Shown here: positions 8,488 through 63,470 of the stretch, piece by piece | How the letters are laid out: the number at the start of each line of letters is the position of its first letter | Position numbering within the stretch: position 1 is the stretch's first letter | Virus record (IMG/VR): IMGVR_UViG_3300025018_000091 | Direction: 5' to 3' (one strand) | DNA length: 64,000 nucleotides | DNA from: a virus | Taxonomy: Duplodnaviria > Caudoviricetes | Notes under the pieces: model-generated | Databases searched by the model: none | What the model was told of the DNA's origin: nothing | The model's input: only the letters and a program-made list of their open reading frames with translations | Made by a program: the position numbers and the translations under genes

Positions 8488-9197
8488 TAATCTCTCACTT
8501 TATTATTACGGGCTAGATCTCTCATATTTTTATAATGAATTCTTATTAATTCTTCATTATCTAAATAATGAAACCCCATTCCAAATTTTTTATTATTATC
8601 ACTGAGCCTTGAAGCATACATGGAATATCGTGCAATTTGATAATCTGTATTTAAAAACTTATAATGATAAAGCGGATATATATTTTTACTATAGATAACT
8701 TTCCCTAAAGGAATTGCATTGTGACACCCAATAGTATAGTTTATTTCTTTCAATTTAGATCTATTAAACAATAGAGATTTGTTATATTGTTCCGCTTTAA
8801 CTCCATTTTTTATGGAAAGAAGATCTAAATTATCTTCCATATTAACCATATTATAGCCTTCAGATCTTATTATAGTTGTACCATTTAGATCTTCAGATTG
8901 TAACTGTTTATATGTAATGTCCAACAATTCATCAGCATCACAAACCAAAACCCAATTTGTGTCTGCAGTTTTCCAACAATTATTTTTTAATTCAAGATAC
9001 TTATAATCATCTATTTTATCATTTGTATTAAAATCTTGTATTTTACTTCCATATTTATTGGCAATCTCTCTAGTTTTATCTGTACTAAAATTATCACATA
9101 ACACTATATTACAATTAGGAAATCTTTTTCTATAATGATTTATAGTAAAATCAATCATGATCTCTTCGTTGTATGTCATAATATAAACAGTAATCAT
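8487..9197 (-). CDS. Glycosyltransferase family 2-like
   Basis: TYNEE, DNFSTD, WVLVCDADE, LYHY. Confidence 0.9.
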   Translation of the reverse strand: MITVYIMTYNEEIMIDFTINHYRKRFPNCNIVLCDNFSTDKTREIANKYGSKIQDFNTNDKIDDYKYLELKNNCWKTADTNWVLVCDADELLDITYKQLQSEDLNGTTIIRSEGYNMVNMEDNLDLLSIKNGVKAEQYNKSLLFNRSKLKEINYTIGCHNAIPLGKVIYSKNIYPLYHYKFLNTDYQIARYSMYASRLSDNNKKFGMGFHYLDNEELIRIHYKNMRDLARNNKVRD

Positions 9198-9217
9198 ATA
9201 TTTTGTGTCCTATATAG

Positions 9218-9880
9218 TTATTTATATGTAGATTGTTTAGACCCAATATGTTCGCATGCATGATTTATCAATGCTACAGTCCTATATCCTTCTTTTAAAG
9301 CATGTTTATTACAACTACACTCAGAGTGTACAATTGCTTTATTAGGAACTATATATTTGATAAATCCTTCTGGAAATAACCTTTTATAATCAGATAATCT
9401 TCTTAAACCAGGATTAAAACTAAACCCACACCAAGCTCCACAGTGAGGAACTTTTACATACCTAAATTGCACATTTGTTTTTGTTTTTAATAGCTGTTCT
9501 TCCAACCAGTCTTCACCAGGTATTAGCCACACTTGATTGATATTTTTATATTCATCTAAAATATCAACAGAATTTGACACAAAAAATGAATTATTTCGAA
9601 ATAACCAATCATCTTCGCAATGAAAAATATATTCAGTTTTCACCATATTATACATATTATCTATTGATTGTAATAGACCTAGATTCTTATTATTAAATAT
9701 GAGTTCTATTTTGTTTCCATACCTTTTTTCTATTTTGGATTTCATTTCTAAATTACCAGAATCTTCTGTTACTATAAATCTTTCTATTGGATAGGTATTA
9801 AGATTAAAGAAAGAATCCAAAGTTTTTTGTAATAAATTAAATCTATTACATGATGTAAGGCAAAAGGTAATTTTATTCAT
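9218..9880 (-). CDS. Glycosyltransferase family 2-like
   Basis: TSCNRFNLL, TEDS, FHCEDDW, FSFNPGLRR. Confidence 0.88.
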   Translation of the reverse strand: MNKITFCLTSCNRFNLLQKTLDSFFNLNTYPIERFIVTEDSGNLEMKSKIEKRYGNKIELIFNNKNLGLLQSIDNMYNMVKTEYIFHCEDDWLFRNNSFFVSNSVDILDEYKNINQVWLIPGEDWLEEQLLKTKTNVQFRYVKVPHCGAWCGFSFNPGLRRLSDYKRLFPEGFIKYIVPNKAIVHSECSCNKHALKEGYRTVALINHACEHIGSKQSTYK

Positions 9881-9888
9881 TTTTCTCC

Positions 9889-10581
9889 TTACCATTTATA
9901 TGTAGATATGTGCTGACCCATATTATGGCAAGCACCATTAGTTAATAATGCTGCTCGATATCCATTTTCTTTAGCATGTTGGTTACAGGCAAACTCTGAA
10001 CAAACACCATGTCCCTTTTGAATATGTTTTATATAACCACTTGGAAACAGTCTCTTATAATCAGATAATCTTCTTAAACCAGGATTAAAACTGAATCCGC
10101 ACCAACTTCCATTATTTTTTACCATTCTATATTTAACACCAGTTGATGTTTGTAAAGCTTCAGACTCTAATCTATTTAATATATTTTTACCATGGCTAAC
10201 AGTATAATTATTTAAGTGTCTTATCCAAATTTGATTTATATTATTATTTTCTGTAAGAATATCAATAGAATCTTGCATAAAATTTGGGTTACCATCATAT
10301 TTATAATCATCTTCACTATGAAAAATATATTCAGTTTTTACCATATTATACATATTATCTATTGATTGTAGTAAACCCAAATTTTTCTCATTGAAAATAA
10401 GTTTAACCTTATCTTTATATTCATTCTCAATCTTTTTTTTCATCTCTAGATTGGCAGAATCTTCTGTTACTATAAATTTTTCTATCGGGTAAGAATTAAG
10501 TTCAAGAAAAGAATCTACAGTTTGTTTTAAAAGATTAAAACGATTATAAGAAGTTAAACATACTGTAACCGTATTTTTCAT
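9889..10581 (-). CDS. Glycosyltransferase family 2-like (tandem paralog of 9218..9880)
   Basis: TSYNRFNLL, FHSEDDY, FSFNPGLRRLSDYKRLFP. Confidence 0.88.
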   Translation of the reverse strand: MKNTVTVCLTSYNRFNLLKQTVDSFLELNSYPIEKFIVTEDSANLEMKKKIENEYKDKVKLIFNEKNLGLLQSIDNMYNMVKTEYIFHSEDDYKYDGNPNFMQDSIDILTENNNINQIWIRHLNNYTVSHGKNILNRLESEALQTSTGVKYRMVKNNGSWCGFSFNPGLRRLSDYKRLFPSGYIKHIQKGHGVCSEFACNQHAKENGYRAALLTNGACHNMGQHISTYKW

Positions 10582-58193: not shown

Positions 58194-58751
58194 TCAAGAC
58201 TTCTTTGGTTTTCTCTGTTTTACTAAATAAAATGGCGGCGATACAGCAGTGCTAAACTCGCTAGCCGCCTCTAACGCCATAACAATTCTTTTTTCTGCAC
58301 TTTTGCCGACAGTAGAGAACAAAGATCCTAATGCAAGGTCTGTTCCACATCCAATTGCATAATAAGGAGTAGATGGAAGTCCAACTTGGAAATCTGAATC
58401 TACTACATATAAAATACCCTTGTATCCTACTAAAAATACACCACCATCAGCATCATCTTCTTTATCAAATGCAAACCCATTCATATTAAAACATGTTCTT
58501 ACATTATCAATAAATGATGTTGTCATGTATTCTAAGTCATCTTCTACTTCTTGTAGAGGTGGAACGAATTTATAATGAAGTAATTGCCCCATACGAAAAG
58601 AGTTTGTAAAACCCATAATAAAAGGACCGTTCTGAAAAACTTTCTTATCTTCTCTGACGCAGATAGAAGTGCCTGCTGATGCCGCACTATCTCCACCAAT
58701 ATAAACAGTTCCTTTATCAACCAACCCAACAATACAGGTTAAATTTTTCAT
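58194..58751 (-). CDS. HslV/proteasome-beta-like Ntn hydrolase
   Basis: TCIVG...IGGDS, K, AIGCG..ALGSL. Confidence 0.8.
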   Translation of the reverse strand: MKNLTCIVGLVDKGTVYIGGDSAASAGTSICVREDKKVFQNGPFIMGFTNSFRMGQLLHYKFVPPLQEVEDDLEYMTTSFIDNVRTCFNMNGFAFDKEDDADGGVFLVGYKGILYVVDSDFQVGLPSTPYYAIGCGTDLALGSLFSTVGKSAEKRIVMALEAASEFSTAVSPPFYLVKQRKPKKS

Positions 58752-58762
58752 GCTACACCTAA

Positions 58763-59395
58763 CTAAGATGACTCGTTAAGTTCCGTCATCTCTATAATAG
58801 CACTATATCGTTCAACCAGTCTTCTTATCTCATCTCTAATAAAAGTAATTTGTTTTAGATATATTTCAGGGCAAATTTTTAATAAACGATCAAATAAATC
58901 AAAATAATGTTCTTTTGTATCATCTATTTGTTTCTTTTGAAATTTTTGACTAGTACCCTTAACTATTAATGATCTGAGATTATCTAACCTATCACATGCT
59001 TTAATTGTAAGAACTTTCCAGTCTGTGCATGTCATAAGCCTATCGTTATAGCCTTCTTTTGGATTTTTACTTAAAAGTTGAACCATTCTAGCAACTTCTT
59101 TTCCAAAAGAATGTTCCAGTAATTCTGGAGTTAAATCATCAGTATCTTCAACTGCATCATGTAATAGACACGTAATAATCATATCACGGTCCATTATTCT
59201 CATATCATCCATTAAAACTAATGCTGTGCGTCTGACATGTTCAAAATAGCGTAAAGGCTTTCCATCCACCTCTTCCTTTCTAAATTGAGCGCGATGACCA
59301 AACTTAGCCAATACATAGGCTAATTTGATATCAAGCTGGTCAGACGGGGAAAAATATGGACGAATTCTATTTTGAAATGTTTCTTTGTTTTCCAT
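58763..59395 (-). CDS. SpoT/Mesh1-type HD hydrolase (small alarmone hydrolase-like)
   Basis: AKFGHRAQFR, YFEH, LLHDAVEDT, IKACDRLDNLR. Confidence 0.88.
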   Translation of the reverse strand: MENKETFQNRIRPYFSPSDQLDIKLAYVLAKFGHRAQFRKEEVDGKPLRYFEHVRRTALVLMDDMRIMDRDMIITCLLHDAVEDTDDLTPELLEHSFGKEVARMVQLLSKNPKEGYNDRLMTCTDWKVLTIKACDRLDNLRSLIVKGTSQKFQKKQIDDTKEHYFDLFDRLLKICPEIYLKQITFIRDEIRRLVERYSAIIEMTELNESS

Positions 59396-59397
59396 AA

Positions 59398-59916
59398 TTA
59401 TCTTTTCTTAGGAACATATAGTCCTGATGAAATTTCCTTTAATACTTTATTCGGCGCATTAAAGTAAATTAATATCTCTTTAATGAAATCATAAAATGGA
59501 TATACTTGTCCGCGCCTAATAGTTAGTATTGAAAATGCATTAATTGGATCATACCCTTTAGATAACATATATGCATATACAATACTTGGAGACCTACTTA
59601 CCCCAGCAAAACAATGAACATACACTTTTCCTTTAGAAATATTGCTATCAATAAATGACAAAACTTCTGGAAGGATATTACAAATACAATTACTTGAACC
59701 ATCATCAATTGATATTGTTTTATGATTAATACCAATTAAATTAAGATTCGGCAATTCTATATCAGTAACATCATTAAATTCAGTCTTATCATTATCACTT
59801 AGAAAGAACTCAGAACCAACTGATAGACATGCGGAAAATCCAGAATTAACTCCATCTTTTATATCCTGGACTTCCGTAAAACTGCCTAAATATAAGTTAT
59901 CGATAATCTCTTGCAT
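59398..59916 (-). CDS. Dual-specificity protein phosphatase
   Basis: NLYLG, IDD, VHCFAGVSRS. Confidence 0.93.
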   Translation of the reverse strand: MQEIIDNLYLGSFTEVQDIKDGVNSGFSACLSVGSEFFLSDNDKTEFNDVTDIELPNLNLIGINHKTISIDDGSSNCICNILPEVLSFIDSNISKGKVYVHCFAGVSRSPSIVYAYMLSKGYDPINAFSILTIRRGQVYPFYDFIKEILIYFNAPNKVLKEISSGLYVPKKR

Positions 59917-60668
59917 TAAAAGACCAACTTTTCAATATAATTTCTATCTGAAGAGAATACTGGTATTTCATTATCAACAACCCATTCAGATCGTTCTACA
60001 ACTTCTTTTTCTCCAGTAAAATGATTAGTTGAATCTTTCATGGTCTTAGTTTTTACAATACAACGACCTCTCTTTTGAGTAGTCGGGCAATTGTTCCAGT
60101 TAAATCCCTTTTGAAAGCACATTTCTTGCAAGGCTGAATTATTTTTATTATTGCATTCCTTGTGAGAATATAGGGAACGAGCCAGCATCTGAACTGAATT
60201 TCTAGTTGCATCCTGTTGTCTCCAGATAAAGTAATTGCACACCTCTTCCTTTGGCAAAACAAATGCTCGGCTATCAAATACTGCTAGCTTATAAACTCCA
60301 AAGAGTTTATGAGACACACCAGTCATCACAGCAGATGCCATTCCAGCCGAAACACTAACCATTTTTTGAAGATTATTATCAAACCACGATTGTGTTTCAA
60401 GTGTAGTGTAATTATTCAGAAGCAATGAAATCTCATCAGATTGAACATATGCTAACTGACATCCCTGAACATTGCTACACAAATAGGTAGCTACATCATT
60501 AATACAATCAATTAGATCTTGATCGAAAGGTTTTTCACAACCTTTAGTGTAGGAATGAAATGCTTTGCCGTCAACCCTAATTATGACAGGCATTCTAATC
60601 GGCAATTTAAGACGATATGCGTCCTCATAAATCTTCATTCGGTCGCCAAGAGAATCTTTAGTGCTCAT
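59916..60668 (-). CDS. thg1: tRNA-His guanylyltransferase (Thg1-like)
   Basis: IIRVDGKAFH, QSDEIS, FDSR, WRQQDATRNS, KRG. Confidence 0.95.
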   Translation of the reverse strand: MSTKDSLGDRMKIYEDAYRLKLPIRMPVIIRVDGKAFHSYTKGCEKPFDQDLIDCINDVATYLCSNVQGCQLAYVQSDEISLLLNNYTTLETQSWFDNNLQKMVSVSAGMASAVMTGVSHKLFGVYKLAVFDSRAFVLPKEEVCNYFIWRQQDATRNSVQMLARSLYSHKECNNKNNSALQEMCFQKGFNWNNCPTTQKRGRCIVKTKTMKDSTNHFTGEKEVVERSEWVVDNEIPVFSSDRNYIEKLVF

Positions 60669-60674
60669 TGTAAT

Positions 60675-61211
60675 TCATCCATGTGAAATTTCTGAGTAAA
60701 CATTTGCTTCTTTACTAAACAAGAAAATCTTTAATTTATTTTTATCCATCAAGATATCTTCGAAAGATACTGGATCTGATTCTCTTTCTTCAATTTCTTC
60801 TGATTCATAATCTTCATAACCACATTCACCATAGTACCCATTATCTATCGGATAAGAATACTCGGGAGAAAAGAATGTGTTTGCTTTTTGACCATCTGAA
60901 TATGTAAATCTAATATTATAAACGATTTTTTTGGCGCCTGTCTGTTCTTTTAGAACGGACTCAAACCTTTCTTTTATTTCTTCGTCGCCATGAACCATTA
61001 TATGTGCAGCAACATAATTTATTTTAACAAGTGAATTATCTAAATAAATTTCAGTAGAAGCAAAATCTCCACCATTTAGTACAAGATTTCCATTATTATC
61101 TAATTTGATCGTATCAAAATCCTCTGTTTCCACAAAAGGATAATGCATTGTGACGCTATGAGAACTAGAACTATTAGTCTCAAAAACATTTTTTCTAATA
61201 TTAATTGTCAT
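60675..61211 (-). CDS. FETNSSSSH-motif protein, copy 3
   Basis: MTINIRKNVFETNSSSSHS. Confidence 0.8.
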   Translation of the reverse strand: MTINIRKNVFETNSSSSHSVTMHYPFVETEDFDTIKLDNNGNLVLNGGDFASTEIYLDNSLVKINYVAAHIMVHGDEEIKERFESVLKEQTGAKKIVYNIRFTYSDGQKANTFFSPEYSYPIDNGYYGECGYEDYESEEIEERESDPVSFEDILMDKNKLKIFLFSKEANVYSEISHG

Positions 61212-61212
61212 A

Positions 61213-61362
61213 TCAAATCCACTTAATTTCTGAATCAATGCTTGAAGAATTTAGAAATAAAAATTTCTTTAATCTATCATCATTAGAACCACTATAATTC
61301 AAAGTGATACTATGGCTGCTTGAACTGTTTGTTTCGAATACATTTCTTCTAATATTAATCAT
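61213..61362 (-). CDS. FETNSSSSH-motif mini-protein (49 aa), copy 2
   Basis: MINIRRNVFETNSSSSHS...KKFLF...; keeps only the two termini. Confidence 0.7.
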   Translation of the reverse strand: MINIRRNVFETNSSSSHSITLNYSGSNDDRLKKFLFLNSSSIDSEIKWI

Positions 61363-61375
61363 AATAATGTCTTTC

Positions 61376-61858
61376 TTAGCAGTAGATTTCCCCACCCTCA
61401 ATCTTGTTGTCCCTTCCAAAAATAAATTTGGCAAGTCTCTTTTTATTATTTAAAATATCAGTGAATGAAAGTTCATCATCATTTTCATTATACCAATAAA
61501 CACCTTCAATGTCTGGACAATAGAAAGTGTTGGCTTTTTCGCCATTAAGTTGTTTGAAAAATCTAATGTCGTAAGATATTCTCTTTGCTCCAGTATACTC
61601 TTTAAGAACAGACTCAAATCTTTCCATAAGCTTATCATCGCCATGAACACGAATGTAAGTTGCAATTAATGCTGCTTTTGATTGTGCTCCCGCAATTTCA
61701 AATTCAATTCCAGTAAAATCTTCACCAGCAATCAAAAGCATTCCGTTCTCATCAGGAAGTAATTTATCATCTAAATCACAATCTTCATTAAATGTAATTG
61801 AAATTGTATGAGAACTTGAACTATTTGTTTCGAATACGCCTCGTCTAATATTAATCAT
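61376..61858 (-). CDS. FETNSSSSH-motif protein, copy 1
   Basis: MINIRRGVFETNSSSSHT; shares ERFESVLKE.TGAK with copy 3. Confidence 0.8.
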   Translation of the reverse strand: MINIRRGVFETNSSSSHTISITFNEDCDLDDKLLPDENGMLLIAGEDFTGIEFEIAGAQSKAALIATYIRVHGDDKLMERFESVLKEYTGAKRISYDIRFFKQLNGEKANTFYCPDIEGVYWYNENDDELSFTDILNNKKRLAKFIFGRDNKIEGGEIYC

Positions 61859-62727
61859 AATCTATCTCCATATTTTTTGTAATAATCTAATAAAAATTGA
61901 CCACAACTGGAGCCAACATCACTACCAGGCGGTTCATAATATTCGTTTTCTATACCGTTATCTGTCAAAATCTTTCTAAACTCAGACACTCTATTTGATG
62001 CTTGAATTTTATAATCTTTCTCACTTAACTTTAATATTTTTACATTGAAGCCAGTACCTTTTAATAATTCTGATAACTCTTTTGCGTCTATATCTTTATC
62101 ATTAAGAAGGTCCATTAATGAATAATGGATTTCTACAGCATTATTAGTTTCTTCTTTATATGCTTTCAATAGTTCTATCGACTCTATGTGAGGCAACGCT
62201 GCAGGCATTAATTGCTTTCTTATAGCAGGATCTATTGTGTGTAGCGAATAATGGAATTTAACTAATTGTTGAAGATTGTTAGCAATAACTAAATCTTTAA
62301 ACTTTATGAAACTATGTTTAGATGGAATTAATGAAGCCACTGCGAAACGTACTAAGTTATAATCATCACAAAAGTACAAATCAGACAAAGACGCCATGGT
62401 TTTAATAACCTTTTCGGTACTTAGCAAAGGCTCTCCACATCCCATAAAAGAAATTAAAAGAATCTTATTGTCATCATGAAATGTAGTGACAGAATATTTA
62501 ATACCATCAATCATCTCATCGGGTCGCAAATTCCTTACCGGAAGGTCTAATCCAGTTAAAAAGCAAAACTTACATCCTAAATTGCATGCAGTTTGAGTTG
62601 GAACAACGACAATATCTTTCCCGTCTCCCTTGTTGATGTAAGAAAATTCTAATACATCATCTTGAGATAAGAAGACTTGTTTAACTGTTTTATCTATTCT
62701 TGAACGCAAAGTTTCAACTAATTTCAT
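61855..62727 (-). CDS. RlmN/Cfr-like radical SAM protein
   Basis: CNLGCKFC, FMGCGEPL, SLH, C-terminal GSDVGSSCGQ. Confidence 0.88.
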   Translation of the reverse strand: MKLVETLRSRIDKTVKQVFLSQDDVLEFSYINKGDGKDIVVVPTQTACNLGCKFCFLTGLDLPVRNLRPDEMIDGIKYSVTTFHDDNKILLISFMGCGEPLLSTEKVIKTMASLSDLYFCDDYNLVRFAVASLIPSKHSFIKFKDLVIANNLQQLVKFHYSLHTIDPAIRKQLMPAALPHIESIELLKAYKEETNNAVEIHYSLMDLLNDKDIDAKELSELLKGTGFNVKILKLSEKDYKIQASNRVSEFRKILTDNGIENEYYEPPGSDVGSSCGQFLLDYYKKYGDRL

Positions 62728-63002: not shown

Positions 63003-63470
63003 TTACTTTAGCACCTGAAGTCTTTTAATTACACGAGGAGCGTTGCTCTTCCTCATTGGAATCAAACCAATAACCGTTTCAGAACCGGGCTCAATCTCAG
63101 TTAACCCAGCATCTATTACAGTAACTCTATTTGATTCTACAATTTGATCTTTAATCTTCTTCCACTCTTTGTCATCCGCTTTAAGAACAACCTTGCGGAA
63201 AGATCCATCCAACCAAGCTTGGAATAAATCAGCATCTTCCTGGCTGAAAGGCATTGGGTGGTGAGCTAAGTCCATATCTATAAATAGATAATCGAAATAC
63301 TTGATTAACAGCATTTGTGCAGCATGAGCACATTGAGCCGCAGTCTTACCAATACTCATATTTAATGACTCTCTAACAATCAAATACATGATGATAGGGT
63401 CTTCTTGATTTGCTCGTGCAGCTATAGCCTCTGGCGAATTATGATCTGTCATACCAGACAACTTAACCAT
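63003..63470 (-). CDS. pth2: Peptidyl-tRNA hydrolase type 2
   Basis: MSIGKTAAQCAHA, KVVLK, DAGLTEI..GSETV. Confidence 0.93.
   Translation of the reverse strand: MVKLSGMTDHNSPEAIAARANQEDPIIMYLIVRESLNMSIGKTAAQCAHAAQMLLIKYFDYLFIDMDLAHHPMPFSQEDADLFQAWLDGSFRKVVLKADDKEWKKIKDQIVESNRVTVIDAGLTEIEPGSETVIGLIPMRKSNAPRVIKRLQVLK

Follow-up and report, generated by a model that had tools for sequence, protein, structure and literature searches.

The window (the whole stretch of viral DNA that was analysed, 64,000 nt) was found to encode two intact proteins and one internally deleted protein that carry a common N-terminal tag. With a probability of about one half, we read this tag as a handle for a dedicated radical SAM enzyme, and the RlmN-like radical SAM enzyme encoded next to the three genes would not be its cognate enzyme.

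On the minus strand, a gene for a short RlmN/Cfr-like radical SAM protein (P0001, 290 aa; 61855..62727) is followed by three tagged genes of 160, 49 and 178 aa. These are copy A (P0002; 61376..61858), in which sequence and an AF2 model indicate an N-terminal tag and a folded alpha/beta body; the mini copy B (P0003; 61213..61362); and copy C (P0004; 60675..61211), which has orthologs in the relatives L089, L090 and L214. The stop and start codons of the radical SAM gene and copy A overlap as ATGA in the sequence, and 1 nt separates the stop of copy B from the start of copy C. The N-termini of the three copies (INIRRGVFETNSSSSHT, INIRRNVFETNSSSSHS and INIRKNVFETNSSSSHS) have the string INIR(R/K)xVFETNSSSSH in common, and a C-terminal element (KFIF, KFLF or IFLF) was found in all three. 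This arrangement of a radical SAM gene, an ATGA overlap and three FETNSSSSH-motif paralogs had been proposed from the DNA letters alone (the sequence-only reading) and was confirmed from gene calls and sequence. Over codons V8-H17 the pairwise comparisons of the copies gave 3, 5 and 8 synonymous changes and no amino-acid change, so that neither chance nor a recent gene conversion accounts for the common motif, and purifying selection on the tag is strong. Copies A and C could be aligned over their full length with the body of the tagged-protein family (K61, T89, F145/F147), and the main tagged cluster was matched to the window-type body with an hhalign probability of 99.9%.

The tag spans about 17-20 residues with the consensus h-x-h-R-x-x-h-F-E-T-N-S-S-S-x-H-S. 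Residues R5, F9, E10, T11, N12, S13, S14, S15 and H17 are present in all three window copies; R5, E10, N12, S13, S14 and H17 were invariant in an alignment of 38 sequences, and among 87 sequences R5, E10, N12 and S13 were invariant and S14 and H17 nearly so. As judged by homology searches, the tagged proteins are a large phage-restricted set: the family comprised 1314 representatives (50% clustering, E ≤ 1e-3), and its carriers include Microcystis phages as well as megaphages, Lak phages among them. When the tag was stripped from the sequences, a second family of 62 sequences was unrelated to the first by hhalign (probability 0.3%), and 11 further small or singleton groups were obtained. By this comparison the tag was shown to be a portable N-terminal unit that heads two or more protein families with no relation to each other. 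Beyond the tag, conserved polar residues are found in the main branch (GGEFGWE, TKANY, YIDHxS, GNDN); YIDHxS and GNDN are lost in the window subfamily, in which the tag is intact. No conserved Cys was found in the tagged proteins.

The main-branch proteins match PHROG 28997 over their full length, and gp130 of Microcystis phage Ma-LMM01 belongs to this group (E 5e-115). In the window, the similarity to PHROG 28997 is confined to the tag (residues 2-24) in copy A (E 6.5e-4) and copy B (E 1.6e-3), and copy C gave no match to it. Pfam and NCBIfam searches with the tagged proteins returned nothing. The phage GenBank collection yielded no match at the nucleotide level and none to the protein P0002, and Microcystis and Lak phages were reached only with a main-branch member as the query. 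Literature searches on the tag motif, and on radical SAM enzymes together with phage RNA repair, returned nothing on the tag module.

An AF2 model of copy A from a deep alignment reached a pLDDT of 93 with a confident body, and the tag was predicted as an unstructured N-terminal extension (pLDDT 64-76, residues 1-14 coil). A folded body was likewise predicted for the full-length clients, which are 140-300 aa long (160-178 aa in the window). For this body, the best Foldseek match to the PDB had an E of 1.1 and the best VIA-align wide match a Z of 2.3, the best match of the sequence profile to the PDB had an E of 0.45, and an Atlas search with a first, shallower model gave only viral hypothetical-protein clusters above TM 0.3 (TM 0.64-0.67). 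With both AF2 models, no known fold was found in the PDB (Foldseek), VIA-align wide, the AFDB clusters or the ESM Atlas; the matches were only to uncharacterised, mostly viral proteins.

By its junction sequence, mini copy B is a lineage-specific, one-off microhomology deletion. It consists of the tag (~29 codons) fused to the last 20 codons of a paralog of 164-174 aa, and junction analysis placed the 115 missing codons between in-frame GATGAT repeats; a slipped-strand deletion between these repeats would be its origin. The counterparts in L001, L090 and L214 are full length and an identical mini copy was found only in the same strain (contig L218), so the question raised in the sequence-only reading, whether the mini copy is conserved, is answered in the negative. 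Since the GAT repeats are in phase, the deletion left the reading frame open, and frame preservation is no sign that both ends are the functional unit. From that earlier proposal of two functional ends, the N-terminal motif is retained, as it heads unrelated bodies, and the mini copy is given up as its proof. Values of pN/pS were 0.21 for the mini copy against a full-length ortholog and 0.24 and 0.30 for the corresponding segments of copies A and C, with counts too small to separate a recent deletion from continued constraint, and the remnant may or may not still be in use.

Gene neighbourhoods in other phages showed that the tag is almost always encoded beside one dedicated radical SAM family of ~300 aa, here called canonical. 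Every IMG/VR locus set comprised the 80 top-scoring entries of a longer hit list and was not a random sample. Within such a set, the canonical enzyme lay within 1.5 kb of the tag at 63 of 68 non-redundant tag loci, and at 49 of those 68 it was directly downstream on the same strand. In the reverse test, again on the best-scoring 80 of a larger list, tag genes were found at 64 of 65 canonical-enzyme loci. The same pairing occurs in phage Ma-LMM01 (gp130, gp128). The co-occurrence of motif and radical SAM genes in other phages, which the sequence-only reading had named as a check, was thus found, and because of this two-way coupling the objection that genomic linkage is missing in other phages falls away. 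The canonical enzymes match PHROG 16999 ('Fe-S oxidoreductase'; E 1e-79 to 2e-32), of which the window enzyme is no member. They lack a SPASM domain, and their only conserved Cys residues are those of CxxxCxxC. A profile of the canonical family gave no match anywhere in the 64-kb window.

In the reading that we prefer, the tag would be an exposed N-terminal handle by which the canonical radical SAM enzyme recognises its client proteins, and the enzyme probably modifies these clients covalently, with the invariant loop E-T-N-S-S-S-x-H as the likely modification site. The cognate enzyme of the window tags would probably belong to the canonical family as well. The genomic linkage itself would fit the tag as a substrate, a docking peptide or a pathway partner alike.

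Three known types of radical SAM system were compared with the canonical pair. The working analogy is with anSME/AtsB, where a radical SAM enzyme also acts on full-size clients with a short invariant Ser-containing motif. Unlike these, the canonical enzyme lacks a SPASM domain as well as auxiliary-cluster cysteines, the tag is strictly N-terminal and does not contain the (C/S)xPxR sulfatase motif, and the clients are phage-restricted and unrelated to sulfatases. The RiPP maturases (SuiB/streptide, SkfB) resemble the tag system in having one enzyme with tandem, diverging clients upstream that have a conserved N-terminal segment in common, and the core of the canonical enzyme is weakly similar to SuiB and SkfB (E 1e-4 to 5e-3). 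In the tag system, however, the clients are folded proteins, no RRE, SPASM domain or exporter was seen, the sole peptidase-like match was a weak C39 match in L002, and the conserved element is itself the probable target. The glycyl-radical activases (NrdG, PflA) are likewise small SPASM-less radical SAM enzymes, whose target is a loop in a folded protein from a neighbouring gene, and in NCBIfam the canonical enzymes weakly matched NrdG2 (E 1.5e-7 to 3e-6), with one representative also weakly matching PflA (E 2e-3); the tag has no counterpart of the C-terminal RVxG motif and no invariant Gly, and the client folds are unrelated.

The enzyme actually encoded beside the window tags is of a different kind. 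P0001 was matched by the NCBIfam RlmN model TIGR00048 with E 4e-33, its 114.7 bits being far below the family cutoff of 290, and by PDB entries of RlmN (6fz6, 1e-18; 4pl1, 6e-17) and Cfr (1.5e-13). It shares with RlmN/Cfr the radical SAM core, the CxxxCxxC motif (C48/C52/C55, in the cluster motif CNLGCKFC, aligned to the RlmN cluster cysteines), the MGxGEP motif and the C-terminal methyl-carrier Cys motif, in which C275 (GSSCGQF) aligned to E. coli C355 (AACGQL) and was invariant in the family alignment. In contrast to RlmN, it is ~80 residues shorter N-terminally and has no RlmN N-terminal domain, the TIGR00048 alignment beginning at about model position 73. The resolving Cys118 of E. coli, seven residues before the first cluster Cys, is replaced by V41 in P0001 and by Val in its closest relatives, whereas the wider short-RlmN family has Cys. 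The short form is common to Patescibacteria-type proteins and phages. Since P0001 has no resolving cysteine, its chemistry may be unusual: an RNA-protein adduct could, for example, stay trapped or be resolved by another route. From its homology P0001 is most likely an RNA-directed enzyme, and it probably shares an RNA-repair context with the tag rather than being its cognate enzyme. The possibility that P0001 is a divergent member of the canonical family was tried and rejected, as a profile built without the sequence of this clade matched only the CxxxCxxC motif (E 0.0014). One 61-kb contig has both a short RlmN-like gene and the canonical enzyme at separate places (L133, L199). The idea that megaphages with short RlmN-like genes usually carry the canonical enzyme was also rejected, none of five large IMG/VR records giving more than weak generic radical SAM matches (≤39 bits).

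The sequence-only reading had taken this adjacent radical SAM protein as the enzyme coupled to the motif, a claim that is not supported at the family level: P0001 is of another, RlmN/Cfr-type family, and among short RlmN-like loci in IMG/VR (the best-scoring 80 of a larger list) tags were found at one of 43, that one being of this clade itself, and at none of the 42 outside it. A narrower version, in which the RlmN-like enzyme is the working partner of the tagged proteins within this clade, either as the tag modifier or with the tagged proteins as its adaptors or resolving factors, is unlikely, although several facts argue for it. Of the seven distinct genomes sampled from the clade, five have the tags directly after the RlmN-like gene. 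The order of radical SAM gene and then tags recurs in the window, L001, L089, L090 and L214, with a junction that overlaps by 4 nt in L001, L089 and the same-strain contig L218 and is a 3-nt gap in L090 and L214. Elsewhere tags are almost never found apart from a radical SAM gene, and a chance landing beside a second radical SAM family is unlikely a priori, unless the shared RNA-repair context explains it. Furthermore, the enzyme lacks both the RNA-binding N-terminal domain of RlmN and the resolving Cys118, and the Val at that position sets the window clade apart from the wider family. However, in L087 and L088 the V-type enzyme is present and the locus is free of tag genes, and L214 has three tags beside an enzyme that retains Cys at the Cys118 position, so Val and tag do not correlate. 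The tagged proteins have no conserved Cys, and the invariant residues of the tag are the same as in phages that use the canonical enzyme. Across the megaphage clade, 0-3 tag genes lie between the RlmN-like gene and Thg1, and both flanking genes persist. The order at the window locus, enzyme first and then tags, is the opposite of the canonical order. A complex prediction of P0001 with P0002 (alignments A6, A5; score 0.16, mark 0.32) speaks neither way.

By its gene content, the window trio is part of a predicted tRNA-maintenance island composed of PTH2, the RlmN-like radical SAM enzyme, the tags, Thg1, a phosphatase, an HD protein and an NAD-ligase. Directly downstream of copy C, a Thg1-like 3'-5' tRNA nucleotidyltransferase is encoded (59916..60668, minus strand; Pfam PF04446, E 8e-28). 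On the same strand are a dual-specificity phosphatase-like gene (DSPc; 59398..59916), assigned by Pfam on the identical-strain contig L218 and by synteny in L001, L089, L090 and L214, an HD_4 gene for a RelA/SpoT-type HD hydrolase-like protein (58763..59395; Pfam PF13328 on L218), and a gene for the peptidyl-tRNA hydrolase PTH2, a conserved upstream member of the island (63003..63470; Pfam PF01981 on L218 and relatives). Among tag loci from the best-scoring 80 of a larger IMG/VR list, Thg1 was present at 10 of 69, and Thg1, a PNK-type kinase, RNA ligase, CCA-adding enzyme or RlaP lay within 6 kb at 18 of 69, compared with 1 of 34 control phage loci (Fisher p=0.003). This enrichment, the many conserved polar residues past the tag in the main branch and the RNA-modifying enzyme homologue beside the window tags would also fit a different explanation: the tagged proteins could themselves be RNA-repair factors or enzymes, with the ETNSSSxH loop in a ligand-binding, phosphate-binding or catalytic site and the radical SAM enzyme as a pathway partner on the same RNA. 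We consider this quite doubtful. A shared active site is hard to reconcile with one tag on bodies that have no detectable similarity, and the window subfamily has lost YIDHxS and GNDN yet keeps the tag intact. In addition, the tag is not packed against the predicted fold, and known enzyme folds were unmatched in the searches made.

It is very unlikely that the tag is a targeting signal for packaging or injection, of the capsid-targeting or prohead-protease type seen with T4 internal proteins. A conserved N-terminal peptide on tandem, fast-diverging small phage proteins would be expected from such a signal, V-F-E would resemble an h-x-E cleavage site, and the logic presumably would be that of the T4 capsid-targeting sequence. 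However, a targeting role would leave unexplained why tag genes and one radical SAM family are linked, almost obligatorily, in both directions. A targeting peptide co-evolves with its own scaffold, but the tag stays invariant between widely differing groups of phages, and the tag loci lie among RNA-repair genes and not virion genes. The sequence-only reading had proposed a RiPP-like leader/core peptide or a scaffold that presents the substrate of the enzyme, and a classical RiPP, with leader-core precursors matured by the neighbouring radical SAM enzyme into a released small product, can practically be set aside, for although tandem paralogs with a conserved N-terminus stand beside a radical SAM gene and the C39-like (Peptidase_C39) gene of L002 lies upstream of one, the clients are proteins of 140-300 aa with a confidently predicted body and not RiPP-size peptides, neither radical SAM enzyme shows an RRE or SPASM domain, the window contains no peptidase or exporter and not the C39-like gene, and the conserved part is the tag itself and not a variable core.

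Returning to the tag as a handle for the canonical enzyme, a wider picture can be drawn only tentatively: a phage-wide 'tag-and-modify' system, in which a dedicated, SPASM-less radical SAM enzyme would covalently modify the ETNSSSxH tag of diversified clients that act in tRNA/RNA repair or against RNA-targeting defences of the host, and of which a second client set would have moved beside an RlmN-like enzyme in the tRNA-repair island of this megaphage. If the tag is such a handle, it would belong to a post-translational modification system that is new, widespread and encoded by viruses, and the modification would fall on full-size proteins, not on peptides as in RiPP systems. The portable tag of 17-20 residues and its cognate enzyme would then possibly be a useful tool. 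To our knowledge, few components of the conflict between phages and hosts over tRNAs are known, and the placement of the tag genes among Thg1, RNA ligase, polynucleotide kinase and CCA-adding enzyme genes may tie this system to tRNA repair and to that conflict.

The radical SAM gene of the window, which encodes the 290-aa RlmN-like protein P0001 (61855-62727), is followed on the same (minus) strand by genes for tagged copy A of 160 aa (61376-61858), the 49-aa mini copy B (61213-61362) and tagged copy C of 178 aa (60675-61211). The stop codon of the P0001 gene and the start codon of copy A overlap as ATGA, and 1 nt separates the stop of the mini copy from the start of copy C. The three products begin with INIRRGVFETNSSSSHT, INIRRNVFETNSSSSHS and INIRKNVFETNSSSSHS, and all keep a C-terminal KFIF, KFLF or IFLF element. 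Coordinates, N-termini and overlap thus confirmed the sequence-only reading in its description of a radical SAM gene followed by three paralogs with a common N-terminal motif. This FETNSSSSH-type motif lies in the first ~17-20 residues, referred to here as the tag. When codons V8-H17 were compared among the three copies, 3, 5 and 8 synonymous substitutions and no amino-acid changes were counted, which argues that tag identity was maintained by protein-level selection and not by recent gene conversion.

Close relatives of copy A were found in metagenomes only. When 1.84 billion representatives were searched with a profile, 1314 clusters were retrieved at E<=1e-3, 292 of them at 1e-10. Among GenBank phages, the family is carried by Microcystis phages (Ma-LMM01 gp130), where it is annotated as 'hypothetical protein', and by Lak megaphages, whose records give no annotation. 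No family for the tagged proteins was found in Pfam or NCBIfam, and a literature search returned no publication on the tag motif. Main-branch members are matched along their whole length by PHROG 28997 (unknown function); in the window its match is limited to the tag in copies A and B, and copy C has none. An alignment of 38 sequences shows R5, E10, N12, S13, S14, H17, F145 and F147 as invariant positions and F9, T11, S15, G45, K61 and T89 as nearly invariant ones. The main branch has the additional motifs GGEFGWE, TKANY, YIDHxS, FIFN and GNDN, of which YIDHxS and GNDN were lost in the window's subfamily while the tag stayed unchanged. For analysis of modularity, 211 unique tagged ORFs were grouped after removal of the tag and the groups were compared by hhalign. 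The first group (135 sequences) has the window-type body (probability 99.9%), the second (62 sequences, ~137 aa) has a probability of 0.3% to the window's body, and the remaining sequences fall into eleven small or singleton groups. Since the same tag is found on dissimilar bodies, it is a portable N-terminal element. Members of the second family (L078:5989-6402 and 61 similar IMG/VR ORFs) share a conserved C-terminal ...GD+IVAFGxYGYDG, and their genes usually lie between a tagged gene of window type and a radical SAM gene of the canonical type described below.

Strong linkage of the motif to radical SAM genes in other phages, whose absence the sequence-only reading had named as refuting, was found in both directions. 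In 63 of 68 non-redundant tag loci (from 79 IMG/VR loci of a best-scoring list, not a random sample), a radical SAM protein of ~300 aa, always from the same family and called the canonical enzyme here, is encoded within 1.5 kb of the tag, and in 49 of the 68 its gene is the next one downstream, on the same strand. The five loci without it at this distance comprise that of the window's own clade, three clipped by a contig end close by, and one further locus. Conversely, tag genes are present at 64 of 65 non-identical canonical-enzyme loci, and at 63 they lie upstream of the enzyme gene and on its strand. Tagged paralogs often occur in tandem, with two copies in 21 loci and a maximum of 5-6. The canonical enzyme matches PHROG 16999 'Fe-S oxidoreductase' and has the consensus KITNYCDxGCxFCHESS...ELAIGGGNPL...FDNLAIEQ. 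In its alignment there is no SPASM domain, and cysteines are conserved in the cluster motif only; its similarity to MoaA, NrdG, PqqE-type enzymes, SuiB and SkfB is weak and concerns the core. One sub-branch (L016, L017, L030, L033, L034, L036, L039, L042) has C-x(7-14)-C-x-F-C-H-E-S in place of CxxxCxxC. Ma-LMM01 gp128 belongs to the canonical family. Between it and the tagged gp130 lies gp129 (L004:6547-6885), which is similar to Phage_ProQ_C (PF24203, E 7e-15), and gp131, annotated as 'histidyl tRNA synthetase', has no Pfam match and no similarity to the window's Thg1.

The motif as a radical-SAM-linked functional unit is therefore supported by comparative genomics, but the linked family differs from the RlmN-like neighbour in the window. 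A canonical-enzyme profile built with this clade's sequence left out matched P0001 at CxxxCxxC only (E 0.0014, 3.7 bits), and no match to the canonical profile was found in the whole 64-kb window. Among 43 IMG/VR loci with a short RlmN-like gene, tag genes within 5 kb were confined to the window's own clade. Judged from these profiles, the tag-linked enzyme is a different, unassigned radical SAM family and not P0001. P0001 itself matches solved structures of RlmN (E 1e-18 to 1e-16) and Cfr (1.5e-13), as well as NCBIfam RlmN TIGR00048 (E 4e-33; 115 bits, cutoff 290). Its cluster cysteines are retained, as is the methyl-carrier cysteine at the C-terminus (GSSCGQF). The N-terminal ~70-80 residues of RlmN are missing, and P0001 represents a short form (~290-300 aa) with ~50% identity to proteins labelled Patescibacteria/Parcubacteria by NCBI sources. 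At the position of the resolving Cys118 of E. coli RlmN, P0001 (residue 41) and its closest megaphage relatives have Val, and the wider short-RlmN family has Cys; the methyl-carrier Cys is common to all of them, as is a further Cys in FMGCGEPL. C118 mutants of E. coli RlmN remain crosslinked to RNA, so the chemistry of the Val-type P0001 may be unusual. By homology, P0001 is an RNA methylase relative of RlmN/Cfr type with two defining RlmN features missing. Apart from RlmN/Cfr-type matches, family searches gave weak generic ones only (E>=1e-4), and no feature of P0001 looks like that of a peptide maturase.

The gene order across the megaphage clade is Kelch, PTH2, small genes, the RlmN-like radical SAM gene, tag genes, Thg1, DSPc phosphatase, HD (not always present) and NAD-ligase. 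The tag genes that separate the RlmN-like gene from Thg1 differ in number, with three in L090 and L214, two in L001, two plus the mini copy both in the window and in strain L217/L218, which is 100% identical to it, one in L089, and none in L087 and L088. The enzyme of L214, with three tags, keeps the Cys118-type cysteine, and those of L087 and L088, with none, have the Val form, a pattern in which loss of this cysteine is not correlated with the presence of tags. In P0029, the nearest tagged relative from other clades, the tag gene precedes the canonical enzyme, as in the canonical arrangement. Several other genes in and around this island were noted. In the 442-kb relative L087, an IS605 OrfB/TnpB-type gene (8919-10130) occupies the tag-gene site between the RlmN-like gene and Thg1. 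A gene of 119-137 aa with a weak Peptidase_C39 match lies just upstream of the RlmN-like gene in two relatives (L001:4568-4927, L002:3088-3501) and is absent from the window. A conserved 185-aa gene belonging to the island (window 58194-58751) has no precomputed Pfam match in the relatives; its product begins with MKNLTCIVGLVDKGTVYIGGDSA, which by eye resembles an Ntn-hydrolase/HslV-type N-terminus. Upstream of the island, a UvrD-type helicase gene (L218:4488-7046, ~0.8-3.4 kb past the window end) contains an intein (PF14890), which is also present in L087 and not in L088, L089 or L214.

Conservation of the mini copy, also considered earlier, did not hold. All contigs in which the mini copy was seen are 100% identical to the window, and it was not found in a collection of 15 billion proteins. 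In L001 the B paralog is full-length (164 aa), and the first ~29 and the last 20 codons of the mini copy align to it; a full-length middle copy of 172-174 aa is also found in L090 and L214. Both end points in the full-length gene (...TCA GAT GAT GAT|TTA... and ...GAA GAT GAT GAC|AGA...) lie in in-frame GAT GAT GA(T/C) runs, and the mini copy reads ...AAT GAT GAT|AGA... at the junction. The mini copy is a one-off slipped-strand or microhomology deletion of 115 codons. Since a deletion between in-frame GAT runs keeps the frame automatically, the in-frame state is no evidence of selection. Its retained codons have a pN/pS of 0.21 against the ortholog (0.24 and 0.30 for the same segments of copies A and C), and 6 synonymous changes and 1 nonsynonymous change fall within the tag; these small counts fit a recent deletion and continued use alike.

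The structure of copy A was predicted by AlphaFold2 with an 87-sequence alignment. No secondary structure is predicted for residues 1-14, and pLDDT averages 64 and 76 in the first two blocks of 10 residues and exceeds 95 in the body; a shallower alignment gave the same picture. No solved relative of the body was found (Foldseek best E 1.1; VIA-align best Z 2.3; sequence profile best E 0.45), and its matches in AFDB and the ESM Atlas were uncharacterised, largely viral proteins only. With a mean pLDDT of 93, the clients are predicted to be folded proteins instead of the RiPP-type leader/core peptides proposed earlier. A handle for recognition or modification would be expected to look like this, an invariant and exposed N-terminal peptide that heads different folds and is encoded beside one enzyme. 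As the most likely mechanism, at a probability of about 0.5, we consider that the canonical enzyme recognises its client proteins by the tag and probably also modifies them there.

Among 69 loci, the other gene families found most often around the canonical tag modules were Thg1 and AAA_33/polynucleotide-kinase-like genes in 10 each, RNA ligase in 9, and CCA-adding/PolyA_pol head, RlaP and metallophosphatase in 4 each. By single-representative tblastn, at least one of Thg1, kinase, RNA ligase, CCA enzyme and RlaP lies within 6 kb in 18/69 tag loci and in 1/34 control phage loci with short RlmN-like genes (Fisher p=0.003). ProQ is an RNA-binding protein, and the ProQ-like gp129 may fit this RNA theme. 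The window's island, with PTH2 upstream and Thg1 (Pfam E 8e-28), phosphatase, HD hydrolase and NAD-ligase downstream, has the same RNA-repair theme, and this common context is sufficient reason for tag genes to adjoin an RlmN-like gene. Two papers discuss Thg1, CCA-adding enzymes and Pth2 as genes for tRNA repair in jumbo phages and mention neither the tag nor the canonical enzyme (PMC7824862, PMC2904730). Within such RNA-repair islands of phages, the canonical enzyme would recognise, and probably modify, the N-terminal tag of its client proteins.
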